The notes under the pieces: model-generated
Told to the model about the DNA's origin: nothing
Database searches by the model: none
Seen by the model: the letters and a program-made list of their open reading frames with translations, nothing else
Translations under genes and position numbers: made by a program
Shown: in pieces, positions 306-63,611 of the stretch
Layout: each line of letters opens with the position of its first letter
How positions within the stretch are numbered: the stretch's first letter is position 1
From: an uncultured Verrucomicrobiae bacterium
Lineage (GTDB): Bacteria > Verrucomicrobiota > Verrucomicrobiia > Chthoniobacterales > UBA10450
Length of the DNA: 64,000 nt
NCBI GenBank assembly: GCA_963726745.1
Contig: CAVSDR010000003.1
Location: forward strand, 224,001-288,000
Direction: 5' to 3'

Positions 306-2849
306 CTATTCCGCTTCCTCGCGCAGGATTTGCAACGGCGGTGTGCTTCCAATCCCGCGACTGGTCAGGAGACCCAGCGCCACGGTCAAGGTCGTGACTG
401 CGATCGCCGCGACGCCCACGGGAACGAACGCGACGCTGTATTCCAGCTCAAAGACAAACCGCGCCAGGGCCCAGCTCGAGAGCAGGGCGAGCACGATCCC
501 GGTGCCGCTCGCGAGCAGGCCAAGGAGAAGATATTCCGCGCACAGAATTTTCCAGATCGTCGCGCGGGTTGCGCCAAGCGTGCGCAGGAGGACGCTCTCC
601 TTCAGCCGTTGGTAGCGCCCGCTCCAGATAGTGCTCGCGAGGACCACGACGCCGGCGCCCACGGTAAACAGCGACATCACCCGGATGACCAGCGCGACCT
701 TGGAAAGGATCGAGTCGACCGTCTGGATGACCGCGGTCAGGTCGAGCGCGGAAACGTTGCTGAACTGCGCCACGACCGCGCTCTGGAGGCGCGCGGAAGC
801 AGCTGCATCCGGCACACGGCTGACGATCACGTTGAACGTCGGCGCGGCTTCAAGCACGCCTGCGGGGAAGACGACGAAGAAGTTCGTTTGGAAGCGTTTC
901 CAATCGATCTCGCGCAGGCTGGCGATGCGCGTGCGGATCGGGATGCCCTGCACATCGAAGACCAATTCGTCGCCTATGCCCGCGCGGAAGTCTTTTGCGA
1001 TCTCGCGGTCGAGCGAGATCGGGACGATGTCGCCCGGTTGGTAGTTCTCGACGCGCCCGATCCAGCTCCCAGCGACGACTTTCTCGGTCTCGGCTAATTC
1101 CGCGCGATAGGTCGAGCGATACTCGCGCTGCAGTTCCCACTCGGGAATCTTGCGCTCGGGATCGGCCAGGATCTCGCTGACTGCGCGGCCTTTAATCTCA
1201 GTGAGCCGCATGGTCACGATCGCGGCTTCCTCGATGACCGGGAAACCGGAGGAGCGCACGAGCTCCGCCACGGCCGCAGTTTGATCCGGCTGGATGTCGA
1301 AGAGGAAAATATTCGGCTGGTTCTGCGCATCGAGCGCGCGGAACTGCGAGAGCAGCACCCCGCGCGTGAGGTAAAGATTGAGCAGCAGAAAAGTGCCGAG
1401 GCCTAACGAGACTGTGAGCAGAAGGGTGCGATTGTTCGGCCGGTAGAGATTGGCCAGTCCCTGACGCGCGGCGAAGCTCCAGCGTTGCGGAAAAAATCTC
1501 CGCACCAGCCACATGAGCAGCCGCGCCATTCCAGCGAAGATCGCGATCGCCAGCCCGAGCGCGCCGGCAAAGATCACGCCGGCGAGCCAGCGATCGGATT
1601 GCGCTATGGCAAAGGCGATCACGCTGCCGGCGATGAGCAGGTAAACCAGCGCCACCGCCCAATCGACGGGACGCTTCCGCGTTTCCTCCGTCGCGCCCGC
1701 GCGCAAGATGAGCAATGGCGAAAGCCGGCGAAAACGCAGCAGCGCCGGGAGCGCAAAGAGAATGCAGATGGCAAAGCCAAGCAGCATCCCGCGCAGCACC
1801 GGCCCCCACGCGAGCGTGCTCTCGATCGGGAACGGCAGAAAGCTTTGCAGGATGGCCGGGAAGACGCGCTGGAGCGCAACGCCCAGGACCGCGCCCGCGG
1901 TCGCGCCAAACAATCCCATGGCCGCGGCTTGCAGGAGATAAATCACCACCGTCCCCCGGCCGGACGCGCCGAGACAGCGAAGGATTGCGCCGGTCTGGTG
2001 CTTCTGCTGGAGGTGCGCCTGGATCGCGCTGGCCACGCCAACCGCTCCCAGCAAGAGCGCGATGAAGCCGACGAGATTGAGGAAGCGGTAGAGATTTGCC
2101 AGCGCTTTCCCGAGATCTTTTTTGCGCTTCTCGACCGTGTCGTATTCCAGGCCGAAACGTTTCAGCTCCGGCTCCAGTGTGGCGATGCGCGCCGCCACGT
2201 CGGTGCCGCGCGGGAACTGCACATAATTCCGGTAGTGCACCACGCTTCCGGGCTTCACCAGATTAGTCTCCGCGAGATGCTGCAACGGGAGGTAAACCCG
2301 CGGCGCGAAGGAGCCGGCCGCGGAGGCTTCGCCCGGCATTTTCTTGAGCGCGCCAGCGACGGTGAATTCGGCGTCGCCGATCCTGATTTTGTCGCCTGTT
2401 TTCGCGCCGAACTGGAGCAGGAGACTTTCTTCGACGACCGCGCCGCGGGTTTCACGGTAGGTTTGGGCCGCATCCGCAGGGACGGTTTCCATTTTGCCAT
2501 AGAAGGGAAAATCCCCGCCAAGCGCGCGCAGGGTCACCAGCCGCGTGCCGCCGGTCGCGGGAAAAACGGCCATCGTGCGAAAGCGCGCCTCACGCGCCTG
2601 CGCCGGGCCTAACGAGCGGAGAAATTGTTCTTCCTCCGCGGTGAAAACGCGCGCGCTTTCCACGATCAAATCCGCGCCGATGAGGGTGCGCGCCTGGTCG
2701 TCGATCGCGCGCCCGAGGCTTTGCCGGAAGGAGCCGATGCCGACGAGCGCGGCGATGCCGAGCGTAATCGAGATCGAAAAAACCAGCAGCCGCCGCCGGC
2801 TCGAGCGGCTGTCCCGCCAGGCCATTTTCCCGAGAAACGACCAGTGCAT
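306..2849 (-). CDS. ABC transporter permease, FtsX/MacB-like (YbbP type)
   Basis: 847 aa with two MacB/FtsX halves ('AWRDSR..RRR', 'ILRCLGAS', 'LLRTLGAT'); ybbA-ybbP-tesA-like context. Confidence 0.9.
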   Translation of the reverse strand: MHWSFLGKMAWRDSRSSRRRLLVFSISITLGIAALVGIGSFRQSLGRAIDDQARTLIGADLIVESARVFTAEEEQFLRSLGPAQAREARFRTMAVFPATGGTRLVTLRALGGDFPFYGKMETVPADAAQTYRETRGAVVEESLLLQFGAKTGDKIRIGDAEFTVAGALKKMPGEASAAGSFAPRVYLPLQHLAETNLVKPGSVVHYRNYVQFPRGTDVAARIATLEPELKRFGLEYDTVEKRKKDLGKALANLYRFLNLVGFIALLLGAVGVASAIQAHLQQKHQTGAILRCLGASGRGTVVIYLLQAAAMGLFGATAGAVLGVALQRVFPAILQSFLPFPIESTLAWGPVLRGMLLGFAICILFALPALLRFRRLSPLLILRAGATEETRKRPVDWAVALVYLLIAGSVIAFAIAQSDRWLAGVIFAGALGLAIAIFAGMARLLMWLVRRFFPQRWSFAARQGLANLYRPNNRTLLLTVSLGLGTFLLLNLYLTRGVLLSQFRALDAQNQPNIFLFDIQPDQTAAVAELVRSSGFPVIEEAAIVTMRLTEIKGRAVSEILADPERKIPEWELQREYRSTYRAELAETEKVVAGSWIGRVENYQPGDIVPISLDREIAKDFRAGIGDELVFDVQGIPIRTRIASLREIDWKRFQTNFFVVFPAGVLEAAPTFNVIVSRVPDAAASARLQSAVVAQFSNVSALDLTAVIQTVDSILSKVALVIRVMSLFTVGAGVVVLASTIWSGRYQRLKESVLLRTLGATRATIWKILCAEYLLLGLLASGTGIVLALLSSWALARFVFELEYSVAFVPVGVAAIAVTTLTVALGLLTSRGIGSTPPLQILREEAE

Positions 2850-3522
2850 CAGACGGCCTCGCCGTTGCGCAGGCGGATGGTGCGCTCGGTGAGTTTGGCC
2901 ACTTCCGGGTCGTGGGTCACGAGGACGAGCGCGGTCCCAGCGTCGCGGTTGAGCTCGAACATGATCTCGATGATCCCACGGCTGGTTTCGGCATCGAGAT
3001 TGCCGGTCGGTTCATCGGCGAAAAGAATCTTTGGGCGATTGATGAACGCCCGCGCCAGGGCCACGCGCTGCTGTTCGCCTCCGGAAAGCTGGGCCGGGAA
3101 GTGATCCACCCGTGCGCCCAGCCCCACCCGGCCTAACAAGTCCTGGGCGAGCGCGCGCGCGCGCTGCGGTCGCCCCGCAGCTCCAGCGGCACGGTCACAT
3201 TTTCCAGCGCGGTGAGCGTGGGGATGAGCTGGAAGTTTTGGAAAACGAAACCGACATGCTGGTTGCGCACGCGGGCGCGCGCGTCCTCGTCCAGTTCGCC
3301 TAACGACTCGCCGTGGAGCCGGATGGAACCCGAGCTCGGGCGGTCAAGCCCGGCGCAGAGACCGAGAAGCGTGCTCTTGCCGCTGCCGGACGGGCCGAGG
3401 ATCGAGCAGGTCGAGCCCTGCGGGAGGCTGAAGGAAATTTCCTTGAGCACGGTGAGCGCGCCCGCGCCGGTTTGGTAGGTCTTGCGCAGGCGCTGGGCTT
3501 CGAGAATCGGGTGGGCGGTCAT
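2849..3522 (-). CDS. ABC transporter ATP-binding protein (YbbA/LolD type), split by a frameshift near 3150-3165
   Basis: Walker A GPSGSGKS in ORF 3133..3522; LSGGEQQR, DEPTGNLD and H-loop in ORF 2849..3139; break falls in a (CG)n run. Confidence 0.88.
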
Positions 3523-4210: not shown

Positions 4211-5020
4211 ATGAAGCTTCAAGATTGCACTGCGCTGATCACCGGCGCCTCCTCCGGGATCGGGCGCGAGTGCGCCCGGCAGCTGGCCGACCGTGCGCGC
4301 GTGCTTGTGCTGGTCGCGCGCCGGGGCGATCGCCTGGAGGAACTGGCGCAGGAACTCAGTGCCCGTCGTCCGGCGCTGGCAATTCACCTGCAGGTCGCCG
4401 ATTTGACCAAGCCGGACGCGGTCGCGGAACTCTGTCACTCGTTAGACCAATCCGGAATCGCGATCGATCTGCTGGTTAATAACGCCGGCGTGGGTGACCA
4501 GGGGAACGTCGCCGGCATCGAGGAAGCGAGATTAGCCGACATCATCCGCCTGAACGTCCTCGCCCTGACCGCGCTCACGCGGCGCTTGCTGCCAGGGATG
4601 CTCGCGCGGCGCCGCGGCGGGATCTTGAACGTGAGTTCGAGCGCCTCTTTCATGCCGATTCCCGGGATGGGGATTTACTCCGCGAGCAAGGCTTACGTGA
4701 CCAGTTTCTCCGAGGCGCTGCGCGCGGAAGTGCGCGGGCAAGGCGTGAGCGTGAGCGCGCTCTGCCCCGGGCCGGTGCACACGGAATTCAGCGAGGTGGC
4801 GCATCGGCCGGGGGAAAGCGGGAAGCTCGGGCCAGACTTCGCCTACGTCTCGGTCGAGGAGGTGGCGCGGGCGGGCCTGCGCGGGATCGAGCACAACCGC
4901 GCGCTGGTCGTCCCCGGGATGGCGATGAAACTGGCGATGCTGCTGGTGCGCCTGACGCCAATGCCGTTGATGCGGCTGGCGTTTTCCCTTTCCCCGGCCA
5001 GCGAAAAAATAGCCGACGAG
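4211..5020 (+). CDS. Classical short-chain dehydrogenase/reductase (N-terminal part of the 599-aa ORF 4211..6010)
   Basis: TGASSGIG, NNAG, catalytic S and YSASK, CPGPVHT. Confidence 0.88.
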
Positions 5021-6010
5021 ATGCAGGAAAATTTCTTCCAGACCGAGCTCGATCAGCCACACCCGGAGCGGACGCGCGCAATCTTACAGGCGCATCCGCA
5101 GGTGCGGGAACTGATCGGCCGGAATCCATGGACCGCGGTGATCATGCTCGCGGTGCTCTCGGCGCAGACCGCGCTGGCTTACTCGTTAGGCAAACTCGGC
5201 GGCGGCTATTGGTGGCTCAGCCTGCTGGTCGCGCTCGGCTTCGGCGCGTTCATGAATCACTGCATGTATGTGATCATCCACGACGCCACGCATAATCTGA
5301 TCCTGAAGCGCAAGACGGCGAACAAGTGGATCGCCGTCCTGGCCGATTTGCCGAATCTCGTGCCCGGCGCGATTGGCTTCGGCGTTTACCATCTGCAACA
5401 TCACGCGCACCAGGGCGACTACGATTACGACGCGGACATCGCCAGCCGCTGGGAGGCGCGCCTGATCGGCGACAAGTGGTATCGCAAGGCGCTTTGGCTG
5501 CTCTTCTTTCCCTTCTTCCAGCTGACCCGGCCGCCGCGCTTGAAAGCGATCACGATGTGGAGCCGATGGAGCTTCGTGAATCTAGCCAGCGCGATCACCT
5601 ACGACGCGTTGATCGTTTATTTTTGCGGCTGGGCCGGCTTGCTCTATCTGGTCTTCTCGTTCGCATTTTCCATCGGCCTGCACCCGGTGGGCGCGCGCTG
5701 GATCCAGGAGCATTACACCTACGACGCCGACCAGGAGACGGCGAGCTACTACGGCCCGATCAATTTCCTCGCGCTCAACGTCGGCTACCACAACGAGCAC
5801 CACGACTTCCCCTCGATCGCTTGGAATCGCCTCCCGCGGCTGCGCGCGCTGGCGCCGGAATTTTACGACACTTTGCGTTACCACACTTCGTGGACGCGGC
5901 TGCTGATCGAGTTCATTTTCGATCCGCGCTACACGCTCTTCTCGCGAGTGGAACGGATCGAAGCAGGCAAAGTGGCGCACGACCGCGCGCGGCGCGAAGC
6001 GGTCGCCTAA
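5021..6010 (+). CDS. Membrane fatty-acid desaturase resembling sphingolipid delta-4 desaturase/C4-hydroxylase (DES1/DEGS type); in frame with the upstream SDR
   Basis: N-terminal 'F..TELDQPH..R...IL..HP.V..L' like the DEGS1 N-terminus; His boxes HDATH, HLQHH, HNEHHDFP; 'ETASYYGPIN...NVGYH'. Confidence 0.85.
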   Translation: MQENFFQTELDQPHPERTRAILQAHPQVRELIGRNPWTAVIMLAVLSAQTALAYSLGKLGGGYWWLSLLVALGFGAFMNHCMYVIIHDATHNLILKRKTANKWIAVLADLPNLVPGAIGFGVYHLQHHAHQGDYDYDADIASRWEARLIGDKWYRKALWLLFFPFFQLTRPPRLKAITMWSRWSFVNLASAITYDALIVYFCGWAGLLYLVFSFAFSIGLHPVGARWIQEHYTYDADQETASYYGPINFLALNVGYHNEHHDFPSIAWNRLPRLRALAPEFYDTLRYHTSWTRLLIEFIFDPRYTLFSRVERIEAGKVAHDRARREAVA

Positions 6011-6765: not shown

Positions 6766-7371
6766 TCAATACTTCACCGAACAGCCGTATGGCTTGGTGT
6801 TGGGATTGGAGACTGGCTTACCGGCGAGCGACTCTTCCAGGGCGACCTTCACGTAATTGGTCGCGCCGTCGATATCGGCCGGATTAGCGCTCGGTTTGCT
6901 GTCGATCGCGCCCTCGTAGATCACTTTGCCCTCGGGATTGATGATGAACATGTGCGGCGTGTTCTTGGCGCCGTAGACCTGGCCGGTCTTGCCGTCCGGA
7001 TCGAGCAGGATGCTGGTGTTTTTCATCTTCCACTCTTCCTTTTGCTTGGCCGCCTGCTCGGGCGTGAGGTGGCCTTGCTTCCCGGGCGCGGAGGAATCGA
7101 CCGAATACCAGACGACGTTTTTGCCGGCAAATTGATCCTGCAATTTCTGCATGTTGCCGCTGCCGTAATGCTTCTTCACAAACGGGCACTCGGGGTTGAA
7201 CCATTCGAGCACGACGTATTTGCCCTTGCTCTCGGCTAACGAGTGCTGCTTCCCGGTGCTGTCGGCTAACGAGAAGTCGGGCGCGGCGCTGCCCACCTTG
7301 GGCGACTCGGCCGCGATCATGCTGCCGGCGGTGAGGCTCGCGAGGAGCGTGAGGAGGATTTTGTTCTTCAT
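6766..7371 (-). CDS. Exported thioredoxin-fold redoxin (AhpC/TSA-like)
   Basis: Signal peptide; 'APDFSL', 'WFNPECPFV', C-terminal 'YGCSVKY'. Confidence 0.88.
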   Translation of the reverse strand: MKNKILLTLLASLTAGSMIAAESPKVGSAAPDFSLADSTGKQHSLAESKGKYVVLEWFNPECPFVKKHYGSGNMQKLQDQFAGKNVVWYSVDSSAPGKQGHLTPEQAAKQKEEWKMKNTSILLDPDGKTGQVYGAKNTPHMFIINPEGKVIYEGAIDSKPSANPADIDGATNYVKVALEESLAGKPVSNPNTKPYGCSVKY

Positions 7372-7377: not shown

Positions 7378-9493
7378 TTATTCTACGGCCACCTGCGGGG
7401 CCACGGTTTCAAGTTTCTCGAGCACGAGGCTCTGGGTGAGCAATTCCGGGAAGACGATCGGCGCGGCCGCGTTCCCCGCCGGATAGAGCACATAGAGTGG
7501 GACACCGGGCCGGCCGAAGTGTTGCAACATTTTCGTGATCGCGGGATCGGCGTTGGTCCAATCGGCCTTGAATTTCACGATTCCGCGGCGGGCAAACGCT
7601 TCCCGCACCGCGCTCGCTTCCAGGACGGTGCGCTCGTTGAATTTGCAGGTAATGCACCAGGCGGCGGTGAAATCGACGAAGACTGGGCCGCCCTTCGCCA
7701 GCTCGGTCTCGAGCGCCGCTGGGGTGAAGTTGCGCCAGCCGTCGACCGCCGGCGCGGTTGCCGCGAGTGTGGTGCTGGCAAACTTCTCGCGGATGAAATA
7801 AGCGCCGCCGCCGAGCAGGAGCGCGAGCAGGAGCACGAGGACGAGGACACGCTGGCGGCCGGAGGCGAGCGGCGTGGCAAACGCGCCCCACATCCAGCAG
7901 GCGATGCTGACCACCGTAAGAAAAGCAGCCGCCCAGATGATCGCATCGACCCCGCGTTGCGCCCCGAGCACCGAGAGCAGAAAGAGCAACGTGGCGATGA
8001 GGAGGAAGCCCATGAATTGCTTCACCCGCTCCATCCACGCCCCGGGCTTCGGAATGAAGCGCATCCAAGCCGGCTGCGCCGAAAGCAAAATATACGGCGC
8101 GCTCATCCCCGCGGCGATGCTCAGGAACATGAGCAGGATGACCCACGACGGCTGAGTAAACGCAAACCCCAGGGCCGTCCCAAGAAACGGCGCGGTGCAA
8201 GGCGTTGCCAAAACCGTCGCGAAAATTCCCTGGAAAAACGAGCCCGCATCCCCTTCCCGCGAGGTCCAGCCAAGCAGGCCGCGGCTGGCGCTTTGCGGCA
8301 GCGTAATCTCGAAAACGCCGAAGAGATTGAGCGCGAAGACAAGCACGAAGACGCTCATCCCAAGGACGAAATAAGGGTTGGTAAACTGGAGCGCCCAGGT
8401 GATTTCGCGGCCGGCACTTTTCAGCGCGATCAAGACCGCCGCCAGCCCGATGAACCAGACGAAAATGCCAGCGACGAACGAGAGCCCACTGCGCAGGATG
8501 CGGCGGCGGTCGGCGCCAGCGTGCTGGATAAATCCGAAGATCTTGAGCGAGATCACCGGGAGGACGCAGGGCATGAGATTGAGGATGAACCCGCCGATGA
8601 AGCCGAAGAGCAGAAAGGTGAGCAACCCGCGGGCGGGCCCGTCTGTCGCGCGCGCGGCTACGGGCGCAACCGCGGGCGACAAAGTGCCGGCTAAACTCCA
8701 GGCGGTGCGCCCGGCCCCCTCGCCGAAGACGACCAACCCCGGCAGCGCCTGCACGCTGGCATCCGCGCCCTCCAGCGGAATGCGCACGGTCATGCCACTC
8801 AGCGGTGCGCTCCGCGCTGACGTGGCCCACGACCACCTCCGCGCCCGGAAGCGGGAAAAAATCGACCACGGAAGCCTGCGCGAGCGCGGGATGCTGCACC
8901 TTGAGCGTGAGCCCGGTCGCATCGCGGCTCCAGGCGGTCTTGGTGTCGTTAGGCAGCGGCTGCGGCAATTGCCGCTCGAAGCGCTGGAAAAGTTCTTCGT
9001 TGGCCGGCGCGGCTTGCGGTGCGACCGGCAATTCCAGCGCGACCGACGCCCCGCCGGGGATGCAAATTTTCTCGCAAACGAGCCAGTTCGCCTCTGCGGT
9101 CAGCTTCACCATGTTGCTGTCTATTTTTGCCGGCGGGGTGATCTCCTGCAGTAGCAGGACCTCATCGTGATAACCGAAAATGCGGATGTCGCCCGGCTCC
9201 TCCAACCGCAGCGGCACCGGCCAGGAAAGATCGCCCGCCTTCCAATCCGGCGGCAGGCTCCACTTCAGCTCCGTAGGAATGCCGGCATCGCCCGGAAATT
9301 TCCAGTAGGTGTGCCAGCCGCGCTCCATGTGCAGCAGCAGGCCGACCTGAAACGGCTGGCCGGGGACGATCGCGGAAGTATTCGCAACCAGCTGCGCCTT
9401 GACCAACTCCCGGCCCTGGTAGGTCTGCGCCGGCACTTCGCCTAACGAGAGCAAGAGCGCGGCGGCGAGGAGGAGAAAGCGCAGTTTCATCAT
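7378..9493 (-). CDS. dsbD: Protein-disulfide reductase DsbD-like (N-terminal DsbD/DsbC domain, TM domain, thioredoxin domain), frameshift near 8790-8830
   Basis: 'GWHTYWKFPGDAGIP' and 'WLVCEKICIP' in one frame; 'LNLMPCVLPV', 'ATPCTAPF', 'DFTAAWCITCK' in another; ATGA overlap with upstream stop at 9490-9493. Confidence 0.85.
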
Positions 9494-13805: not shown

Positions 13806-15176
13806 TCAGCGCAGCGGCGTCGGATACACCGCCGGGCTCACATTCCCATCGCGATCGACCGCGGCCACGCCGAAGAGGAAGTTATCCTTCGAGATCTTCG
13901 GCAGGGTAAAATCGGTCCCGCTGCCGGCCGGGAGAGAGTGCTGCCAAAACGGCGCCGTGGTTTCGCGCCAATAGATCCGGTAGCCAGCAAGATCAGGCTC
14001 CGTGTTCGCGCGCCATTGCAGGGTGGTGTCGTTGGTTAATTCCTTCGTTCGCACCTGCACTTCCTCCGGCGCCGCCGGCGCAAGCGCGAGCGCACCGAGT
14101 GCCGCCGCGTTGATCCGCGCGACGTTCGCGATGTAATCAAATCGCAGAACTCCGGGAGGTCGCCGAATTGCACCGCGCCTTCCTTCCGCAGGTCCTGGTG
14201 CTGATGGCGGAAGTCCTCGTTCGGCTCGGTGAATCGAACCGCCGCATAGCCGGCATCGAGGAAGGGCGAATGATCGCCGCCGCGCAGGTAGCGATCGCGC
14301 CGGTAGATCACGTTCACCTGCATCGCGGGCACGTATTGCTCGCCGGTAGTCTTGATGAAGCGCGCCAGCTCGCGCGTGCTGCTGTCGTTCTCGCCGCCGG
14401 TCTGGAGGCGCGTGCGCAAGGCTTCGTCCACTTCCTTCATCGCGGGCACGCCTTCGGCAAACAGCCGCACTTGCTTGTCCTCCACTTTGCCATCCTCGGA
14501 GCGCGAGCTGCCGATGATGTCGTTCGTGAACATGCCGGCAATATTCCAGTTCTTCGCCTTGGCGGCTTGCGCCCAGTGCGCCGCGCCCAGCAAGCCTTGC
14601 TCCTCGCCGGCCACGGCCATGAAAACGATCGTCGCATCCCACTTCCGCTTCGACATCACGCGCGCTAACTCCAGAACCGCGGCCACGCCGGAAGCATCGT
14701 CGTTGGCCCCGGGCGCGTCGGCGGTGGCGTTCATCACGTCGGTCACGCGCGAGTCGTAGTGTCCGCTAACCACGTAGATCCGATCGCGCGCTTCCGACTG
14801 CGCGCCCGGGAAGTGTCGCGACTACGTTCACCACCTGCACCGGCTCCGGGTTGCGCTTGCCCGCGGGCTCGGTGAACTCGTCCATCGTGACCTCGAGGCG
14901 GCCGTCGGACTCCTGCGCGTAACGCTCGAACTCGCTCTGGAGCCAGCGGCGCGCGGCGCCGATTCCACGGGTTTCGCTGGTCGCATCCGAGAGCGTGTGG
15001 CGCGTGCCAAAGCTGACCAGCTTGCGGATCGTGGCCTCGATGTTTTGCGGTGAAATCTCGCGCACGCACTCGGCGATCTGCGCGTTCGGCTTATTCTCGG
15101 GCACATTCGGCGGCGCCGCCGTGGCCCTCGTTAGTCCAATCGCCGCCACCGCCGCTGCCAGGAGAGTCGCTCGCAT
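13806..15176 (-). CDS. Secreted M28 family metallopeptidase with C-terminal FN3-like domain; frameshifts near 14775 and 14140
   Basis: '[12 protein letters not shown]', 'SGHYDSR', 'PGANDDASG', 'GEEQGLLG', 'RGGDH' spread over ORFs 14766..15470, 14036..14773 and 13806..14642. Confidence 0.85.
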
Positions 15177-15184: not shown

Positions 15185-16240
15185 CTAAACCTGATTCCCG
15201 CGGCTGGCGAGTTCCCGCACGTCGGCCGTGAACTCTTCGATCGTCTCCTCGGTCGTGGCCCAGGAGCACATCAGCCGATAGACGTCCGGCTCGACAAACT
15301 TGTAGAAATGCCAGCCACGCGCGTGCAAAGCGCTGACTAACGACTCCGGGAGCTGCAGGAAAACGGCGTTGGCTTCCCGCGGAAAAGCCAGCTCCAGGCC
15401 GAGAATCGCCCGCAAGTTGTCGGCTAATTTCTGCGCCGATCGGTTTGCCCGCGCGGCGTTGCGCAGCCACACGTCGTCCTGGAGAAGACCGAGCCAGGGC
15501 GCGGAGAGGAAGCGCATCTTGGAAGCGAGTTGCCCGGCCTGTTTCGCGCGGTAATCGAATTCCTCCGCCAGTTCCTTCCGGAAAAAGACGACGAGTTCAC
15601 CGCCAGGGGCGCCGTTCTTGGTCCCGCCGAAACAGAGCGCGTCGACTCCCAGCTCCCAGGTAATTTCCCGGGGCGCGCAGCCTAACGAGACCAAGGCGTG
15701 CGCAAAGCGCGCCCCGTCCAGGTGCAGAAAGAGCGAGCGCGCGCGCGCAAATTCCGCCAACCGCTCGAGTTCGCCGCGGCTGTAGGCGGTGCCGAATTCC
15801 GTCGTCTGCGTCAGGCTGAGCGCGCGCGGCTTGGGGGAATGCAGATCGCGCTGCCGCACGAGTGTTTCTTCGATCGCCGCGAGCTCGAGCTTGCCATTTT
15901 GGCCCGGCGTGGTGAGCAACTTCGCGCCGCCGGAAAAGAACTCCGGGCCGCCGCATTCATCGGTCGCGATGTGCGCATACTCGTGGCAAACGACGCTGTG
16001 AAAGGGCCGGCAAATTTGCGCCAGCGCGAGACTGTTCGCGGCCGTCCCATTGAAGACCATGAAGACCTCGCAATCGGTCTCGAAGATTTCGCGCACGCGC
16101 TCGGCCAGCCGCTCAGTCCAGCGATCGCCGCCATAGGAAGCATCGGTCGCGCGGTTCGCCTCCTCCAGCGCCTGCCAGGCCTCGGGGCAAATGCCCGCGG
16201 TGTTGTCGCTCGCGAAATCGTAACGGTGCCGCTCTTGCAT
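15185..16240 (-). CDS. ltaE: Low-specificity L-threonine aldolase
   Basis: 'FASDN', 'FNGTAAN', 'HLDGARF', PLP lysine 'FGGTKNG', 'QLASKMRF'. Confidence 0.9.
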   Translation of the reverse strand: MQERHRYDFASDNTAGICPEAWQALEEANRATDASYGGDRWTERLAERVREIFETDCEVFMVFNGTAANSLALAQICRPFHSVVCHEYAHIATDECGGPEFFSGGAKLLTTPGQNGKLELAAIEETLVRQRDLHSPKPRALSLTQTTEFGTAYSRGELERLAEFARARSLFLHLDGARFAHALVSLGCAPREITWELGVDALCFGGTKNGAPGGELVVFFRKELAEEFDYRAKQAGQLASKMRFLSAPWLGLLQDDVWLRNAARANRSAQKLADNLRAILGLELAFPREANAVFLQLPESLVSALHARGWHFYKFVEPDVYRLMCSWATTEETIEEFTADVRELASRGNQV

Positions 16241-23271: not shown

Positions 23272-23358
23272 CGAGCCTCTTTTCACAGTGAAGGCTCGCA
23301 GTCCGGCAGGAGCGGATTGCCGTGCGCGGGCCGTTTGTCGTATAAAACGGAGACGCGC

Positions 23359-32960: not shown

Positions 32961-32978
32961 CGAGTCCTCCGGCGCGCG

Positions 32979-52145: not shown

Positions 52146-53141
52146 ATGAATAAGCATCGTCATTGCTTGTGGTTGTCCTTGATTCTCGGAGCGCTGCTTC
52201 CCTTGCCCGCGCACGCCGGCCAGGTGCACGCACTCGACCCGGCCAAGGTCGTAGGCGCACAGAAATGTGGCGAATGCCACAAGTATGAGGCCGAAGCCTG
52301 GAAGACGACGCCGCATTTTAAGACCTTCGACGAGATGCACCGCAGCCCGGCGGGGCAAAAAATCGCCACCGCCCTCGGCATCCGCCGGATCAAATCCGAA
52401 AGCCTTTGCCTCACGTGTCATTACACCATGCAGCAAAAAGGCGGCGAAGCGGAGCCGATCTCCGGCGTCTCCTGCGAGTCCTGCCACGGCGCGGCGCAGG
52501 ATTGGTTGAACGTGCACAACGACAAGAAGCTCTCGCGCGAAGAGCGGCGCACGAAATCCGCCGCCGCCGGCATGATCCGGCCAGACGACATCTATGCTGT
52601 CGCGGCCAACTGCTACCAGTGCCACCTCGTGCCTAACGAGAAGTTGGTCAACGTGGGCGGGCATCCCGCCGGGAGCAAGGATTTCGAGCTCGTCGCCTGG
52701 TCGCAGGGAATGGTGCGGCACAACTTCCTCACGCCCGAGGGCGAAGAGGGCAAAGTGAACAAGGAAGACGACCTGAAGCGCCGCCGCCTGCTCTTCGCTG
52801 CCGGCACCATCCTTGACCTGGAATACAGCCTGCGCGGCGTGGCCAGCGCGACGGAAAAAGCGACCTACGGCATCACCATGGCACAACGCGCCGCAGCTTT
52901 GCGCAAGAAGCTCGAGGAAATCCAAAAGGTCGCGCCCACCGACGAAATGGCCGCGATCATCGCCGCAGCAAATGCCGCCGCCTTGAAGTTAAACAACCAG
53001 GCGCCGCTCGAGGAAACCGCCAACAAAGTGGCGGAACTGGGGAAGAAATTCACGACGTCGGTCGATGGCGACAAGCTGGCCGGGCTCGATCCGATGCTGC
53101 CGAAAGCCGAGCAATATCGCGGCAAGCCCTATCAGCCCTAG
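52146..53141 (+). CDS. Periplasmic tetraheme c-type cytochrome (c554-like)
   Basis: Signal peptide; CGECH, CLTCH, CESCH, CYQCH; 'W..TPH'. Confidence 0.9.
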   Translation: MNKHRHCLWLSLILGALLPLPAHAGQVHALDPAKVVGAQKCGECHKYEAEAWKTTPHFKTFDEMHRSPAGQKIATALGIRRIKSESLCLTCHYTMQQKGGEAEPISGVSCESCHGAAQDWLNVHNDKKLSREERRTKSAAAGMIRPDDIYAVAANCYQCHLVPNEKLVNVGGHPAGSKDFELVAWSQGMVRHNFLTPEGEEGKVNKEDDLKRRRLLFAAGTILDLEYSLRGVASATEKATYGITMAQRAAALRKKLEEIQKVAPTDEMAAIIAAANAAALKLNNQAPLEETANKVAELGKKFTTSVDGDKLAGLDPMLPKAEQYRGKPYQP

Positions 53142-55738: not shown

Positions 55739-55741
55739 AAG

Positions 55742-57991
55742 ATGCAGCGCCCCCTCGATCCTCTCGGCTTCCGGGAAAACCGTTACGAGCGTCCGAATCA
55801 GGATTGGGTTTGCGGCCGGACAGACGAGCAACACCCCTGTCCGCTCGGGCCCGATGCGCGAGGAAATTGCCGGGCCACCGGCGAATGTCTTCCCGCGAAA
55901 CGCGGCGATCGCTGGAGTTGCACCCGCAGCGAGGCCGCCGGTGGGAAGTGCACCGAGGGGCCGCTGCCGGATGGCGCCTGCGCGCACCCCATTCTCCCCT
56001 GCCAGCCCACGCGCTCGCTCCGCCGCTCGCGCGCCCTTGCCGTCTGGCTGGTGGTCGTGCTCACTGGCGGCTTGCTGCTGATTTTCCTGGGGGTCGCGAT
56101 GCGGCGGCCCGTGATCGATGCCGGCACGCTGACTAATGCGCACGCCACCTCTGCGAGCACCTGCCGCGATTGCCACAGCCTCGACCAGACGAATCTCGGC
56201 GCGGCGCTCCTCTCGGGCTCGTTAGGCCAGCGCGCCCTGCGGGACAGCGCCCTTTGCCTCAAGTGTCACGAAGAAGGCGCGCAGCCGCTCAACCCCCACG
56301 GACTCCCGCCCGCCGCCCTGGCCCACATCCGCGCGGAGCAAAGCCCGTCGGCTAAAACTTCCGCGCCGCTTGCCTTGCGCGTGAGCCGGCAGTTCGCGGC
56401 CCACGGCGGCGACGCGGGAGCACTCGCCTGCGCGCTCTGCCATCAGGAGCACCATGGGCGAAATTTCAATCTCGCGCAGATGAGCAATGCCCAATGCCAG
56501 ACCTGCCACGCGGTGCAGTTTGCCAGCTTCGGCCAGGGACATCCGGAATTTGCCGGCTATCCCGCCCAGCGGCGGACCCGCATCTTTTTCGATCACCAAA
56601 GTCACCTGCGAGAGCACTTCCCTGCGACCCGGAGCGGCGCGCCGCAAGGCTGCCAGGATTGTCACACGCCCGGACCTGCGGGCCGCTTCATGCAGGTGAA
56701 AAGCTTCGAGAAAACCTGTGCCAGTTGTCACGCCGCCCAGATCCGCGGCGAGGGCATGACCACGAAAGGCGTGGCCTTTTTTGCCGTGCCAGGAATTGAC
56801 GCCGAAACGCTCGCCGCTCGCGGCCACAGCGTAGGCGAATGGCCGAGGCTGGCCGATGCGCGGCTGACGCCCTTCATGGAATTGCTCCTGTCGCGGCAGC
56901 CGGCGGCACGCGCGGCCCTGGAGCAACTGCGCGGCGTGGACCTGCTCGATCTGCGCACGGCGACGCCGGAACAACTCGCGGCCGCGGAGAGTTATGCCTG
57001 GGAAGTAAAGCGCCTGCTCTTCCACCTGGTGACCGAGGGCCAAAGCTACCTGCTCGCACAGATGGCGCAGGAAGTCTCGCCGATCGGCCTGGAGCTGCCG
57101 CGCGCGACGATTCTCGCCGCGCAAAAGGAGTGGATGCCAAACCTGCTGACCGAGATGGCTGCGTATGAAAAAGGCGTCAAACCCACGCTTGCGCCCACGC
57201 CTGCGCCGTCGCTCACGTCCACTCCGAGCCTGTCGGCTAAAACGGCGCCGCCGGCAGGAGACGGTGATCTGCTTGCGAGCGATGATCTAAGCGCAGCTGC
57301 GGCCACGCCGACGCCCGCACCGGCCGACGATGACCTCACAGGTGGCGACCTCTTGAGCGCATCGCCTGTGGCGGAAGCGACCCCGGCCCCATCGGCCACG
57401 CCTGCACCCGCGATCCCGGCGGAGGAATGGGTCGCCGCCGGCGGTTGGTATCGGCCGCAGGAAAGTTTTACCCTGTATTACCGGCCGGCCGGCCATGCCG
57501 ACCCGTTTCTCGTCGCCTGGCTCGAGGCCGCGCAGCGCTCCACGGTCGACCCGCACATTTTCGATCGCATGGCCGACCGCCAGGCGCCCGGACTCTGCCT
57601 CAAATGTCATACGATCGACCAAACCGCTCCCGGCCAGGTGCAAGTCAACTGGACCTCGGCCCAGCCGGACGGAAAGAGCCATCCCTTCACCACCTTCAGT
57701 CACACAAAACACTTCAGTCTCGTGGGCGACGCCGGCTGCCAGACCTGTCACAAGCTCGACCCGCAATCGACGTATCCGAAGTTCTTCGCAGAAGACGAGG
57801 CCGGCGCGCCGCGGCGCGATCCGCAGAAATTCCAAAGCAACTTCGCGCCCATGCCCAAGCTATTGTGCGCGGAGTGCCATCAGCCGCGCGTCGCAGGCGA
57901 CAACTGCACGCTCTGCCATCGCTACCATGCCGCTCCGGACCGGGCGGGCGAACTCGCCGAAATCGGCCGGTTTCGGCCCGCGCAAAAATAG
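55742..57991 (+). CDS. Membrane-anchored decaheme c-type cytochrome with Cys-rich N-terminal domain
   Basis: 10 CXXCH (CRDCH, CLKCH, CALCH, CQTCH, CQDCH, CASCH, CLKCH, CQTCH, CAECH, CTLCH); 8-Cys N-terminus followed by a TM helix. Confidence 0.9.
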   Translation: MQRPLDPLGFRENRYERPNQDWVCGRTDEQHPCPLGPDARGNCRATGECLPAKRGDRWSCTRSEAAGGKCTEGPLPDGACAHPILPCQPTRSLRRSRALAVWLVVVLTGGLLLIFLGVAMRRPVIDAGTLTNAHATSASTCRDCHSLDQTNLGAALLSGSLGQRALRDSALCLKCHEEGAQPLNPHGLPPAALAHIRAEQSPSAKTSAPLALRVSRQFAAHGGDAGALACALCHQEHHGRNFNLAQMSNAQCQTCHAVQFASFGQGHPEFAGYPAQRRTRIFFDHQSHLREHFPATRSGAPQGCQDCHTPGPAGRFMQVKSFEKTCASCHAAQIRGEGMTTKGVAFFAVPGIDAETLAARGHSVGEWPRLADARLTPFMELLLSRQPAARAALEQLRGVDLLDLRTATPEQLAAAESYAWEVKRLLFHLVTEGQSYLLAQMAQEVSPIGLELPRATILAAQKEWMPNLLTEMAAYEKGVKPTLAPTPAPSLTSTPSLSAKTAPPAGDGDLLASDDLSAAAATPTPAPADDDLTGGDLLSASPVAEATPAPSATPAPAIPAEEWVAAGGWYRPQESFTLYYRPAGHADPFLVAWLEAAQRSTVDPHIFDRMADRQAPGLCLKCHTIDQTAPGQVQVNWTSAQPDGKSHPFTTFSHTKHFSLVGDAGCQTCHKLDPQSTYPKFFAEDEAGAPRRDPQKFQSNFAPMPKLLCAECHQPRVAGDNCTLCHRYHAAPDRAGELAEIGRFRPAQK

Positions 57992-57997: not shown

Positions 57998-59062
57998 TTA
58001 TTTCGCCGAGGCCGGTGCGATCCGAAAAACCTGATAAGGCGTGGTGCGCATGCTTTGGCCATTATTGAACCGCGGCATGTGCTCGATCTGCGACGCGGTC
58101 ACGTAGAGAGAGCCGTCCGGTCCCCATGCGAGCGAGTCCGGCCAGTTCAGGCGTTCGTCCTGCACCACCCGCTCGATCTCGCCGCTCGCTGGACGAAAGC
58201 GCGAGATCCCATTTCCTTCGAGATCGGTCAGGTAGATCGCGCCGTCGGGACCTTCAAGCATGCCGTCGGGCGGCGCGGTTTGCCCGAGCTTCTCCACCTT
58301 GGCCGCGAGTGCTTCGGGCGAAAGTTTGTCATCGATCAAGGCCGCCGTCGGAATGCGATAAAGCGTGCGTCCGGTGAGCGCGTGGTAATAGAGGAAGCCA
58401 CCAGCCGCATCGAGCGCGATGCCATCAGAGTGGATCAGCGGCGTCTTGCCTTCAGGCGTAAGCACCTTCCGGCCTTGCACGGTGAGAGTGACGTCTGTTT
58501 CCGCCTGGGTGGACGGATGGCCCGCGAGCACACGGCGCGCGTTCCCGGTTTTCAAATCCACCACCACGAGCGCGCCCAGACCGGAATCGGTCAGAAACGC
58601 GACGTTCGCTTTCGTGTCCACACGCACATCGTTCAAATAGCTCTTCGCCGGCGCGACCTCACCCAGCGGAATGATGCGGATCGACTTGTTCGTCTGCAGA
58701 TCGATCTCGACCAGCTTCGGGCCATCGGCGACTACGCCGGCCATTTTCGGCGAGGCCGGATCGAGCACCCAGAGCCGATCGAGCGCATCCACGTAGACGC
58801 TTTGCACGCAGACGAAGTGGGTCGAGGCCGGGCCCTCGGCATTCCAGGTCTCGTTAGGGAAGGGCCGCGGCTGGCCGTCCACGATCTCCGCGACCGAGAT
58901 CGTGTGCGTGTCGGACCATTGCGGGAAGTTCACAAAAATGCGGCCGCTCTGCGAAACGGCCACGCCGGTCACCTGCAGCTCCGGGAAGCTCGCGACTTCG
59001 CGCAGATCCCCGGCGGAAAAGGTGGCCGCGACCGCCAGGAGAATTGGGAAGCTCATGCTCAT
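57998..59062 (-). CDS. Major royal jelly/yellow-like (L-dopachrome tautomerase-related) beta-propeller protein
   Basis: 'TGVAVS..GRIFVNFP', 'VQSV.VD..DRLWVLD', 'SYLNDVRVD', 'SDGIAL', 'WPDS'. Confidence 0.88.
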   Translation of the reverse strand: MSMSFPILLAVAATFSAGDLREVASFPELQVTGVAVSQSGRIFVNFPQWSDTHTISVAEIVDGQPRPFPNETWNAEGPASTHFVCVQSVYVDALDRLWVLDPASPKMAGVVADGPKLVEIDLQTNKSIRIIPLGEVAPAKSYLNDVRVDTKANVAFLTDSGLGALVVVDLKTGNARRVLAGHPSTQAETDVTLTVQGRKVLTPEGKTPLIHSDGIALDAAGGFLYYHALTGRTLYRIPTAALIDDKLSPEALAAKVEKLGQTAPPDGMLEGPDGAIYLTDLEGNGISRFRPASGEIERVVQDERLNWPDSLAWGPDGSLYVTASQIEHMPRFNNGQSMRTTPYQVFRIAPASAK

Positions 59063-59113: not shown

Positions 59114-60565
59114 CTAATCACGCCGCGGCTTAAGCAACGGGAAGAGGATCACGTCGCGGATCGATTCCGCCCCGGTGAGCAACATCGTCAACCGATCGAC
59201 TCCGAGCCCAAAGCCGCCCGCCGGCGGCATCCCGTGCTCCAGCGCGAGCAGGAAATCCTCGTCCAGCTTCTGCGTTTCCTCGCCGGCCTGCTCGAGCAGC
59301 CGCTGCCGTTGCACCACCGGATCATTCAGCTCGGTGTAGCCAGGCGATATTTCCTGGCCGTTGATGATCAGCTCGTAGACATCGACTAACGAGTCGTCCT
59401 CCAGGTTTTGCTTGGCCAGCGGCACGAGTTCCTTCGGGCAATGGGTGACGAAAAGCGGGTCGAAAGTTTTCTCCTCGACCAGCTTCTCGAAGATCTGCTG
59501 CGTGACTTCGTAATCGGCCATGCGCGAATTGATCTCGACGCCTAATTCGCCGCAGCGCTGCCGGCGTTCTTCGCTGGTGTAGTCGAACCACTTCGGATCG
59601 ACTTCGCGAATGAGATCGCGATAGCGCGCGCGCCGCCACGGACGCTGGAGATTCAAGGTCCGCGTGACTTCACCCTCGGCGTTGCGGTGCTCGATCTGGG
59701 TCGAGCCGATGACCGTCTCCGCGAGATGACAAACGAGGCTCTCGACCAGGTCGGCGATCTGCTCGAAATCGGCGTAGGCCCAGTAAGCCTCGAGCATGGT
59801 GAACTCGGGATTGTGCCGGCGAGAGATGCCTTCATTGCGGAAGTTGCGGTTGAGTTCGAAGACTCGGGTGAAGCCGCCCACGAGCAGGCGCTTGAGGTAA
59901 AGCTCCGGCGCGATGCGCATGAAAAGATCCATCCCGAGCGCGTTGTGATGCGTGCGGAAAGGTTCCGCCGCGGCGCCGCCGGCCACTGCCTGCAGCATCG
60001 GCGTTTCCACTTCCAGGAAGCCGCGCTCCTCGAGAAAGCGGCGCATCCCGCGCACGATCGCGATCCGCTGCTCAAAGACTTTTTTCGATTGCTCGTTCGT
60101 GATCAGATCAAGGTAGCGCTGGCGGTAGCGCGCCTCCACGTCCTGCAAGCCATGCCATTTTTCCGGGAGCGGCCGGAGCGATTTAGCCAGCACTTTCAGC
60201 TGCGTGACCTTGAGCGTCGGTTCGCCGGTCTTGGTCGTGAAACACGTGCCTACCACGCCGAGGAAATCGCCCAGGTCGAGCAGGCCGAAGGTTTCCATCG
60301 TCTCTGCGCCCAGCTCTTTCGTCTGCAGGTAAATTTGCATCCGCCCGGTGCTGTCGCGCAGGTCGAGGAAGTGGCTCTTGCCCATGTCGCGATGGGCCGT
60401 GATCCGGCCGGCGATACGAAAGGTGGAGCCCTCGGCGAAACGCTCCCGCACTTCGCCGATCGTGCCGTCAGTCGCGAAAGCGCTGCCAAAAGGCGCGACG
60501 CCGCGCGCCTGCAAATCCGCCATTTTCTTCCGCCGGAGCGCGATCAGTTCGTTCTCTTCGTCCAT
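59114..60565 (-). CDS. lysS: Lysine--tRNA ligase (class II)
   Basis: 'YRQRYLDL', 'GGAAA.PF.THHN', '[11 protein letters not shown]', 'FRNEG', 'HNPEFT', 'GMPPAGG.G.G.DRL'. Confidence 0.97.
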
Positions 60566-60676
60566 CGCTCGCGACTGTAGATTGAAACCCGTGAGGGGCG
60601 AGTGGTTTTGCCGCGCCCGCGGATTCGTTAGGCAACTTCGCACAGCCGTCGCTTCGCGGAGGGACGATTTGTTTTG

Positions 60677-62853: not shown

Positions 62854-63611
62854 TGCAATTGCTCATCGTGCACGACGATCCCGAGGTCGGCGGGCAACTG
62901 CTCCAGATGGTGAAGGATTACACCGAGCACCATTGCGGTTTTGCCGCTTCCGACGCGGCCGCGCTCGACTGGGCCCGCGGGGTCTCGCGCTGCTCGCTCC
63001 TGATCACCCAGCTGCGCGGCGAGAAAGTGGACGGCTTCTCGTTAGGCGGCGCGCTCAGCGAGATGTTTGCCGGTTTGCAGACGATGTTTCTGCCGGCCTA
63101 CGCGAGTGCGGACCGGCGGATCGATCTCTCGCAGAGCAAGGTTTTCCCGGAGCCGATCGACGGCGAGCGGCTCTTGCACGCGATCGCGCGCGCGGAGGAG
63201 CAACGCCAGACCGGACTCGATCTCTACCACGCGGTCGACGTGCTCCAAATGTGCTGCCTAAGCGGACGCGACGGCGCGCTCCAGTTTGTGAAAGGCTCGC
63301 AGACCGCGATGGTTTTCCTCAAGGCCGGCCAGATCGTCCATGCGGAACGCGGAGCCGCGCGCGATGCGGAAGCGTTGTTTGAACTCGCCGGCTGGGAAGC
63401 GGTCGAATTCGCCTATGACCAATACGTGCGCCCGCCTGCAGAGACGATCGCCGGCCGCTGGGACGAATCGCTCCTGCCCGCGGTCGCGCGCCGTAAACCT
63501 ACGGTCGTCGGCGCGGCCCCGGCCAAGCCCGCCCCTGCGCCTGCGCCTGCCGCGCCCCCGGCTCCGGCACCCGCGCCGAAGAGTCGCTGGGGTATTTTCG
63601 GCTCGCGTTAA
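62853..63611 (+). CDS. Atypical receiver domain plus DUF4388/PATAN-like domain
   Basis: 'LLIVHDDP', 'LLITQL', 'VDGF.L'; 'DVLQMCCL..RDG.L.......VFLK.GQIVHA...ALFEL..W....F'. Confidence 0.8.
   Translation: MQLLIVHDDPEVGGQLLQMVKDYTEHHCGFAASDAAALDWARGVSRCSLLITQLRGEKVDGFSLGGALSEMFAGLQTMFLPAYASADRRIDLSQSKVFPEPIDGERLLHAIARAEEQRQTGLDLYHAVDVLQMCCLSGRDGALQFVKGSQTAMVFLKAGQIVHAERGAARDAEALFELAGWEAVEFAYDQYVRPPAETIAGRWDESLLPAVARRKPTVVGAAPAKPAPAPAPAAPPAPAPAPKSRWGIFGSR

Follow-up and report, generated by a model that had tools for sequence, protein, structure and literature searches.

A hyper-abundant, clade-limited DNA word in a Chthoniobacterales genome resembles DNA uptake sequences and matches the integron attC/attI core

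To our knowledge, sequence tags written throughout a genome are firmly known from only two proteobacterial families: the DNA uptake sequences (DUS) of the Neisseriaceae, which are read by the minor pilin ComP, and the uptake signal sequences (USS) of the Pasteurellaceae. These tags are non-palindromic, 9-12 bases long and found about once per 1-3 kb on both strands; they sit within genes in every open frame, are constrained at the level of DNA, are poor in imported DNA and are limited to clades, within which they form dialects. Their spacing is rather even, and a sharp core is surrounded by tolerant flanks with a weak A/T preference just beyond the core. Short sequences can become over-represented in other ways as well: cyanobacteria carry HIP1 (highly iterated palindrome 1), and very-short-patch repair affects oligonucleotide frequencies. 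Here, we analysed a stretch of 64,000 nucleotides (called the window) from an uncultured Verrucomicrobiae bacterium of the Chthoniobacterales family UBA10450 (GenBank assembly GCA_963726745.1, contig CAVSDR010000003.1, positions 224,001 to 288,000, corresponding to C3:224001-288000 of the genome labelled G000), together with the complete set of contigs of the source genome (3,406,779 bases, 7 contigs, 64% GC, 94.7% complete) and the genomes of its relatives. A first-pass annotation, made from the letters of the window, had pointed to an over-represented 8-mer and interpreted it as an undescribed genome-wide signal. We find that this 8-mer is the centre of a longer word that is kept intact at the DNA level throughout the genome, is limited to a clade, and corresponds in sequence to the recombination core of the family's integrons.

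The 8-mer CTAACGAG is found at exactly the 27 window positions that had been counted by hand, 15 on the plus and 12 on the minus strand, whereas 100 dinucleotide-preserving shuffles of the window gave an expectation of 0.67 (standard deviation 0.77, largest value 3) and none of them reached 27. GC content across the window is 62-65%. The whole genome contains 680 and 613 copies on the two strands, 1,293 in all, against 60 expected from an order-3 Markov model, so that the enrichment stands against this null too; the word is non-palindromic and shows neither strand nor replichore bias. The 8-mer is real but incomplete as a description. Of the 1,293 copies, 87% have G at the second base before the 8-mer and 74% have C immediately before it; in 70% the next base on the 3' side is T or A, a weak preference for T/A appears three bases further on, and beyond about 11 bases around the word no sequence conservation was seen. 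The full word reads GCCTAACGAG(T/A), 10-11 bases with the 8-mer at its centre (called word A where it has to be told from a second word). The 10-mer GCCTAACGAG is present in 820 copies versus 6.1 expected under the same Markov model, a 134-fold excess, and CCTAACGAGT in 405 copies, a 231-fold excess. The seven 7-mer variants reported from the window are likewise present and all differ at the last letter (CTAACGAC four times, CTAACGAA three times).

The word has a very sharp core, CTAAC-R-A. One-letter variants of the 10-mer at positions 3-7 (C-T-A-A-C) and 9 (A) sum to 94 copies, which is not above the Markov background; their ratios of observed to expected counts are at most 1.6, with A9>G (5.7) as the sole exception. 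Changes at positions 1, 2, 8 (to A) and 10, by contrast, give variants that exceed expectation 9- to 56-fold; for G1>C, any change of C2, G8>A, G10>A and G10>C the excess is 17- to 56-fold. If 820 copies were shedding neutral mutations, an excess of one-letter variants of the core should be seen; since there is none, the copies must be actively kept. The word thus bears the signature of a driven DNA word, and its core is actively maintained.

To relate the word to coding sequence, genes were called with a home-made caller based on GC content at third codon positions; the 2,347 calls, which cover 58-80% of each contig, are rough. Called genes contain 938 of the 1,293 copies, 67 lie across a gene end and 288 outside. 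All four stop-free frames are used, namely TCG-TTA-G (484), CTC-GTT-AG (111), CTA-ACG-AG (131) and nCT-AAC-GAG (160), and the word holds 484 of the 2,623 TTA codons and 131 of the 1,262 CTA codons of the genome. It also supplies stop codons: 52 genes end in its CGT-TAG, and 56 of the 2,347 called genes in its CTCGTTAG. In the window, 15 of the 27 sites are read as TCG-TTA (Ser-Leu), two as CTC-GTT in putA and three as nCT-AAC-GAG, while five give a stop codon (at 23268, for rpmA, and at 27766, 32360, 32957 and 46127) and two lie outside called genes; the readings and stops proposed in the first-pass annotation were all recovered. We then compared the 943 copies counted in genes with shuffled coding sequences. 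In 20 synonymous-codon shuffles, 11-29 sense and 14-32 antisense copies remained (about 40 in sum), and in 10 codon-order shuffles 10-18 and 8-19 (about 27 in sum), which rules out codon or peptide bias as the cause. Because all stop-free frames and rare codons are used and the enrichment outlasts both kinds of shuffle, it is the DNA that is constrained rather than the protein, as had been proposed from the window. The orientation of the word follows the gene strand, 647 of the 938 copies in genes being antisense and 291 sense, which is what one would expect if words are confined to places that the coding sequence tolerates. The stop codons of the 2,347 called genes are TAG in 851, TGA in 796 and TAA in 698 cases, and the share of TAG and TAA is unusually high for a genome of 64% GC.

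The next most enriched k-mer family after word A is a second word (word B), approximately A-W-n-T-T-G-Y-Y-G-G-C-T-A-W-T-T. Its part GYYGGCTAA occurs 1,139 times, with 564 and 575 copies on the two strands; it is found in genes, where it uses several frames, and TGYYGGCTAA has 516 copies in the source genome versus 23 of the control. An excess of TGYYGGCTAA was seen in only three of the 120 other family genomes (G015, 144/27; G038, 68/19; G050, 97/24; word/control). The window holds 30 copies of word B (for example at 156, 7261, 8686, 24979 and 59109), and no fixed spacing between words A and B was found genome-wide. Word B is not integron-like. The presence of a second word in few genomes indicates that the lineage makes hyper-abundant words of changing specificity. 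Conspicuous among the enriched 12-mers are also tandem hexamer and short coding repeats such as GTTGGCGTTGGC (146 copies) and GGAGTCGGAGTC (56 copies), which probably encode repeat proteins.

Word A is spread over the chromosome at 0.2-0.6 copies per kb in nearly all 50-kb bins. Pairs of words less than 300 nt apart number 107, versus about 200 expected by our own arithmetic at random placement. When words A and B are counted together, the mean distance between sites is 942 bases and only three gaps of at least 9 kb, with lengths of 10-15 kb, are free of either word, compared with about 0.1 expected by chance (again our own arithmetic); the GC content of these gaps is 58-62% (Table 1). The O-antigen-type cluster among them (C7:66391-81659) encodes glycosyltransferases, a Wzt/Wzm ABC transporter, a Wzy-like protein, epimerases and methyltransferases and was probably imported recently, since it combines the absence of both words with a low GC content. 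Foreign DNA thus carries no word, and horizontally acquired islands are word-poor. The statement that the motif occurs in core and accessory genes alike therefore holds in part: the three low-GC islands are without copies, and the word is not evenly spread over accessory DNA. Words lie within 30 nt of each other at a single locus, C3:1052249-1052290, where two direct copies and one inverted copy share about 40 bases. A paired site of the dif/Xer type, with inverted words around a short spacer, was considered and rejected, this odd locus being the only one of its kind. A dispersed repeat or miniature inverted-repeat transposable element was ruled out as well, there being no information beyond about 11 bases and no fixed spacing between words A and B.

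We then searched the genomes of relatives for the word and for a reversed-word control, the ratio of which is a rough measure. Relatives' counts include the unpublished genomes G001, G008, G034 and G050. The 10-mer exceeded the control in 18 of 18 genomes of the same genus (51 to 1,404 copies). With the 9-mer, all 34 genomes searched in the genus stood above the control, at ratios between 2.4 and about 27. In 12 other families of the order, with one genome searched each, the 10-mer was at or below the control. Among 121 family genomes of at least 80% completeness, GCCTAACG reached at least 3x the control in 35 (called word-rich), 1.5-3x in 19 (intermediate) and less than 1.5x in 67 (word-poor). 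The genera g15, g27, g34 and g35 are rich as wholes and g1 in part, g18, g19, g25 and g42 are poor, and g32 stands at 0.1x the control. The rich genomes also differ in dialect: the fraction of GCCTAACG copies with AG directly after them is 0.59-0.71 in the source genus, 0.45-0.52 in g16/g27 and 0.18-0.33 in g15/g34/g35. The word is thus genome-wide and clade-limited. We found no description of it in the literature, in searches on uptake sequences, on integrons, Chthoniobacterales and attC, and on the 7-mer as an over-represented sequence, which did not extend to supplements.

Individual sites turn over between relatives. DNA identity between species of the collection is about 75%, and the nearest public LysRS proteins are 83-85% identical to the lysS product. 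At the window sites 23268 and 24984, some of the ten aligned relatives (which include L106 from G001 and L115 from G034) show one-letter-off versions in place of the word, and some other word sites are common to several genera. In lysS, the conserved Asp-Ser-Leu-Val-Asp-Val is written with the word, through the rare codon pair TCG-TTA, in five of the 13 sequences that have the peptide. The absence of some sites from relatives and the sharing of others, together with the one-off versions, indicate that words arise by point mutation and turn over. In the lysS neighbourhood, 1-7 words could be aligned per pair of genomes, of which for example 2/3, 2/5 and 3/5 were kept versus 8-19% of all 7-mers; these numbers are too small to support a claim, and the pairs are non-independent. 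The suspicion that the motif is a systematic basecalling or polishing artefact can be dropped, as short-read assemblies of relatives (e.g. L002, L018) carry the word. Two soil sequencing runs matched small shares of the window (0.15 and 0.06) as short contigs and support one site only: a short-read contig (run X2, record 12) spans 24735-25062 with two letters different and, among the differences listed (24823), none lies inside the word at 24984.

A comparison with the integrons of the family revealed a relation that the first-pass annotation had not seen. The integron integrase model TIGR02249 (E <=1e-30) has matches in 82 of the 121 family genomes, in 78 of them over the curated cut-off and with up to five per genome, and attC-type arms are present in 120 of 121, with up to 155 arms per genome; most of these genomes are bins of limited completeness, from which integrons readily drop out. 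The neighbourhoods of the integrase gene intI were compared in G043 (source genus, rich), G066 and G130 (g34, rich), G064 (g32, the genus at 0.1x the control) and G078 (g19, poor). All five intI loci, from four genera, contain arrays of cassettes whose attC sites are about 123 nt long and on one strand read RYCTAAC-GAGAACAA-GATSAGCC ... GGCTGCATCGCATG-GTTAGRY in the five arrays; the source genome's own array has the same R' arm. Cassette open reading frames (ORFs) mostly lie opposite that strand (17 of 21, 11 of 15 and 8 of 10 in L100-L102, and 8 of 12 in the own array L121). Because of this, because the arrays adjoin the 5' end of intI and because two extrahelical bases lie on the arm opposite the AAC arm, the strand of attC that carries the word was assigned, by sequence logic, to the recombining bottom strand, and the arm that carries it would be the bottom-strand R' arm. 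In PMC5027507, the R' box on the bottom strand is given as RYYYAAC, cleaved between A and C, and the unpaired spacer adjoining it is described as not conserved in known attC sites. By this alignment, the genomic word GCCTAA|CGAG equals the R' arm that is cleaved in attC, extended by the first three bases of the spacer. It fits the R' consensus with its AAC cleavage triplet and runs three bases into the spacer exactly as in the attC and attI sites of the family, in which, unlike in known attC sites, these spacer bases are conserved. The candidate attI beside intI reads CTAACGAGAA in three of the four arrays examined (L099-L102; L103 ends before its intI), and the identity holds in word-rich and word-poor genomes (L101 and L102 being from poor ones). 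The chance that a 10-mer matches RYYYAAC plus three family-specific bases is, by our own estimate, about 1 in 10,000. The other attC arm (RYCTAAC-CAWGC) is not enriched in the source genome, where CTAACCA has 90 copies versus 2,025 of CTAACGA. The identity of a genome-wide word with attC R' and attI is new here.

The genomic copies are nevertheless not attC sites. The source genome has 23 attC arms, 17 of them in a main array at C6:736330-744900 (the others are given in Table 1), and attC repeats account for only 23 of about 2,000 copies. An attC site has two imperfectly complementary arms (R''-L'' ... L'-R'), which fold into a hairpin of 57-141 nt. For the roughly 1,270 other words, genome-wide counts of pairs and arms found no partner arm, L box or hairpin; they are solitary and therefore not attC sites. 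Integrase-less cassette regions also lie at C4:150074-151067, C3:633883-635385 and C2:58698-58981, outside the window, and the cassette ORFs of the source genome had no Pfam matches. No full integrase was found in the source genome at its 94.7% completeness: the best TIGR02249 match scored 80 bits against a cut-off of 265, the matches being two Xer-like genes, and tblastn with a relative's integrase returned only an intI relic of about 50 residues (C2:58698-58894), which adjoins one attC arm.

Of the systems described so far, the DUS and USS of Neisseriaceae and Pasteurellaceae fit the signature of the word best in our analysis. The reading that we tentatively favour, without regarding it as established, is a self word of the uptake-sequence kind whose specificity matches the integron core. 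A sequence-specific reader in the lineage would favour the word, which would spread by point mutation through the lineage's own genes and be kept there. The reader would most likely act on the DNA of kin as it enters the cell or recombines, in the manner of the known uptake sequences: fragments bearing the word would be taken up and recombined more often, the word would accumulate wherever the protein code tolerates it, and recent foreign DNA would be without it. The reader may have taken its specificity from the integron core or been adapted to match it, in which case the tag would be present in every gene cassette, and kin DNA and cassettes would be favoured together. Such a core-matched specificity is proposed because attC arms are the commonest family-specific repeat and because chromosomal integrons are reported to recruit cassettes from transforming single-stranded DNA (PMC12614218). 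We infer both the driving step, a bias in uptake or recombination, and the nature of the reader. Parts of an uptake machinery are present in the source genome, namely ComEC, DprA, a secretin beside a PilB/GspE-type ATPase, and a prepilin-type protein.

Several observations weigh against this reading. ComEC is found in 114 of the 121 family genomes, word-poor ones included, so that competence genes do not discriminate rich from poor. The suggested search for a ComP-like protein gave no receptor of the ComP type (Pfam PF16732) over the cut-off, the best match reaching 21.9 bits versus 27.3 and covering the N-terminal pilin part only, and a ComEA-like ORF is weak and looks frameshifted. Inverted word pairs, which form terminators in Neisseria, show no excess of close pairs genome-wide. 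The phylum is a different one (Verrucomicrobiota), and the word is known from genome sequence alone. Unlike the described uptake sequences, it coincides with an integron recombination core, which the classical model does not predict and for which the link given above is a guess, and it shares its genome with a second word, which requires a second reader or a changed specificity. Since attC arms occur family-wide, in poor genera too, integrons alone do not cause the word; its hyper-abundance is a trait added at the level of genera. The comparison between genomes has its own limits: the reversed-word control is without the word's TA and stop triplets, so that the ratios are rough and the poor class is probably the natural baseline, and kin genomes are non-independent, so that Fisher and rank tests overstate.

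A variant with a closer tie to integrons, which we consider possible though doubtful, is a kin tag in which a reader, either an uptake receptor or a DNA-binding protein derived from a recombinase, took over the exact attC/attI core in some genera. More direct still would be a role of an integron integrase or a related tyrosine recombinase, which would read the words as attI- or attG-like cores, serving as landing places for cassettes or as binding sites of the enzyme, that are kept by selection or as a by-product of strand exchange. The ten matching positions including the cleavage triplet, the enrichment of one attC arm only and the wealth of integrons in the family speak for it, and integrases can use double-stranded genome sites (attG), as described in the preprint 10.1101/2022.09.11.507474. 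Matches to intI were found in 29 of 35 word-rich and 39 of 67 word-poor genomes, somewhat more often in the former, with an odds ratio of 3.5 that is uncorrected for kinship. Nevertheless, six of the 35 word-rich genomes have no intI match, among them the few-contig assemblies G087, G076 and G000, whereas 39 word-poor genomes do, and the poor arrays L101 and L102 have the same arms. The number of attC arms does not track richness either (Spearman rho 0.11, p 0.24; medians 23 and 19). The flanks differ, the genome preferring G then C at positions 1-2 and attC R then Y, and the genomic dialects vary between genera while the attC arms do not: g34 arrays read GAG, yet the genomic word of g34 has no preference for G at position 10. 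The consensus of attG in that preprint is only GWT, three bases long, the roughly 1,300 genomic copies are solitary, more than 1,000 recombination cores in essential genes would be hazardous, and word B is not explained in this way. As neither intI nor attC number clearly tracks richness and the words are still sharp in a source genome with an intI relic and two Xer-like genes only, an integron integrase is unlikely as the present reader, and we hold the wider recombinase explanation, which builds on the sequence match, to be improbable as well.

An intracellular bias of repair or gene conversion has been proposed for HIP1 and for very-short-patch repair. Here, a nickase or glycosylase that recognizes mismatches in a given sequence, perhaps together with a modification enzyme, would restore or create the word in any DNA replicating in the cell. 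This would explain why core one-offs do not rise above background, which looks like correction. The CpG in the word behaves asymmetrically, with 93 copies of G8>A and none of C7>T, and two words in one genome together with a fast change of specificity between genera would fit mobile modification or repair modules. The search for methyltransferases found a single C5 DNA methyltransferase gene (C5:212477-213604), a 542-residue frame near a contig end in a lower-GC stretch. HIP1 and very-short-patch repair share with the word the hyper-abundance of a short sequence in genes, kept at the DNA level, and a repair-driven origin is one live explanation; unlike HIP1, the word is not a palindrome, and no Vsr-family gene was found in the 94.7%-complete genome. 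The low-GC islands are word-free although they replicate in the cell, but may simply be recent. With 9-11 specified non-palindromic positions, the word is longer than usual methyltransferase sites. Overall, we regard this explanation as unlikely.

Still less probable is a signal for chromosome handling, such as a Chi-like site that tames a recombination nuclease, or a sequence bound by a nucleoid or segregation protein. Like Chi, KOPS (FtsK-orienting polar sequences) and AIMS (architecture-imparting sequences), the word is over-represented at the 8-mer scale in native DNA; it is missing from foreign islands, as is Chi, and its spacing is rather even. However, the two orientations are nearly equal within segments of constant GC skew (238/192, 234/221, 63/70 and 92/91), orientation being set by coding constraints rather than by replication, and the palindromy or paired sites usual for binding sites were not seen. 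The 134-fold excess is far above the levels known for Chi or polar motifs. A signal of the Chi/KOPS type was rejected on the orientation counts. The analogies listed in the first-pass annotation, which included partition sites, HIP1 and methylation- or repair-driven motifs beside uptake sequences, are narrowed accordingly: the orientation counts speak against the Chi and partition type, and non-palindromy and the lack of a Vsr gene against the HIP1 and methylation-repair type. That there is no signal at all, and that the word arose by chance, from a bias in codons or peptides, from a dispersed repeat or through errors of assembly or basecalling, has a negligible probability in view of the shuffles, the random flanks beyond 11 bases, the few copies in attC repeats and the independent short-read assemblies, even though several frameshifted genes indicate that the assembly is not error-free.

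Sites of word A and its variants in the window are given in Table 1 together with the smaller attC loci and the word-free gaps. Frameshifts split several genes: in the window an ABC ATPase gene (2849-3139 and 3133-3522), with a (GC)7 run adjoining at 3150-3164, putA (16287-18959 and 18493-19671) and a short ResB-like piece (44647-45276), and elsewhere metH at C7:27010-30307. The frameshifted genes are either long-read indel errors or pseudogenes. Frameshifts as a mark of modification at the word were considered and rejected, as the ABC ATPase break lies beside the (GC)7 run and the putA break not at a word. A cluster of multihaem and c554-like cytochromes occupies 46918-57991 of the window, with an FAD/NAD/2Fe-2S oxidoreductase and a cNMP-binding 4Fe-4S protein.

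Table 1. Word sites and last-letter variants in the window, and attC arms and word-free gaps elsewhere in the source genome (window positions as plain numbers, other positions as contig:position).
Feature	Sequence	Position	Strand	Context
Word	GGCCTAACGAGA	1403..1410	+	antisense in FtsX/MacB permease gene, TCG-TTA-GGC (S-L-G)
Word	GCCTAACGAG	2609..2616	+	antisense in the same FtsX/MacB permease gene as 1403, TCG-TTA-GGC
Word	GTCTAACGAGT	4438..4445	-	antisense in SDR-desaturase gene, TCG-TTA-GAC
Word	TGCCTAACGAGT	5182..5189	-	antisense in SDR-desaturase gene, TCG-TTA-GGC
Word	GGCTAACGAGT	7236..7243	+	antisense in AhpC/redoxin gene, TCG-TTA-GCC
Word	GGCTAACGAGA	7266..7273	+	antisense in AhpC/redoxin gene, TCG-TTA-GCC
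Word	GCCTAACGAGA	9442..9449	+	outside called genes
Word	GACTAACGAGG	15127..15134	-	outside called genes
Word	GCCTAACGAGA	15682..15689	+	antisense in beta-eliminating lyase gene, TCG-TTA-GGC
Word	GCCTAACGAGG	17853..17860	-	antisense in putA, CTC-GTT-AGG (L-V-R)
Word	GGCTAACGAGT	17955..17962	-	antisense in putA, CTC-GTT-AGC
Word	GTCTAACGAGC	18002..18009	-	antisense in putA, TCG-TTA-GAC
Word	TCCTAACGAGC	23268..23275	+	TAA of the word is the rpmA (L27) stop; absent in 10/10 aligned same-genus relatives
Word	GGCTAACGAGT	24984..24991	+	sense in fmt, GCT-AAC-GAG; absent in 10/10 relatives; covered by short-read contig X2 record 12
Word	GCCTAACGAGC	27766..27773	+	gives TAG stop of minus-strand DUF5122/dockerin gene
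Word	GTCTAACGAGA	32360..32367	-	gives TAA stop of small minus-strand ORF (32364-32618)
Word	TCCTAACGAGT	32957..32964	+	gives TAA stop of ORF 32619-32960
Word	TGCCTAACGAGT	38274..38281	-	antisense in CarboxypepD_reg protein gene, TCG-TTA-GGC
Word	TGCCTAACGAGT	41181..41188	-	antisense in class-V aminotransferase gene, TCG-TTA-GGC
Word	GCCTAACGAGT	43614..43621	+	antisense in cytochrome c assembly gene, TCG-TTA-GGC
Word	TGCCTAACGAGC	45072..45079	+	antisense in ResB-like piece, TCG-TTA-GGC
Word	GCCTAACGAGA	46127..46134	+	gives TAA stop of ORF 45705-46130
Word	TGCCTAACGAGA	52633..52640	+	sense in cytochrome c554-like gene, CCT-AAC-GAG
Word	GCCTAACGAGC	56218..56225	-	antisense in multihaem cytochrome gene, TCG-TTA-GGC
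Word	CCCTAACGAGA	58850..58857	-	sense in MRJP/SGL-like gene, CCT-AAC-GAG
Word	GACTAACGAGT	59386..59393	+	antisense in lysS at conserved D-S-L-V-D-V, TCG-TTA; same codons in L001, L002, L023, L021
Word	GCCTAACGAGA	63038..63045	-	antisense in DUF4388 gene, TCG-TTA-GGC
Last-letter variant	CTAACGAC	3300..3307	+	tolerated position 10
Last-letter variant	CTAACGAA	4204..4211	+	
Last-letter variant	GTCGTTAG(GC) on + strand	8945..8952	-	
Last-letter variant	CTAACGAC	15337..15344	+	
Last-letter variant	GTCGTTAG(CC) on + strand	28354..28361	-	
Last-letter variant	TTCGTTAG(GC) on + strand	29495..29502	-	
Last-letter variant	TTCGTTAG(GC) on + strand	60624..60631	-	near lysS 5' end
attC arm pair		C4:150074/150945		
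attC arm pair		C3:633883/635385		
Single attC arm		C2:58981		
Single attC arm		C4:25419		
Word-free gap		C7:66391-81659		15.3 kb, 57.6% GC; O-antigen-type cluster
Word-free gap		C7:28027-40148		
Word-free gap		C6:822804-833064		

Should the word be an uptake-like self word, it would be a third case of a genome-written sequence tag, in a group that ranks among the most abundant bacteria of soil, and would widen the biology of such tags. If the reader did take over the integron core, one short sequence would mark both the lineage's own chromosome and the gene cassette, tying self-recognition of DNA to cassette exchange, and in genomes that bear an integrase the whole chromosome could be a field of attI-like landing and excision points. 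It has long been asked how cassettes arise, spread and find their targets, and here one sequence links chromosome, attC and attI. In practical terms, the word and its dialects mark native versus imported DNA and may help to bin contigs, to assign cassettes and phages to their hosts and to date gene transfer in these uncultured lineages.

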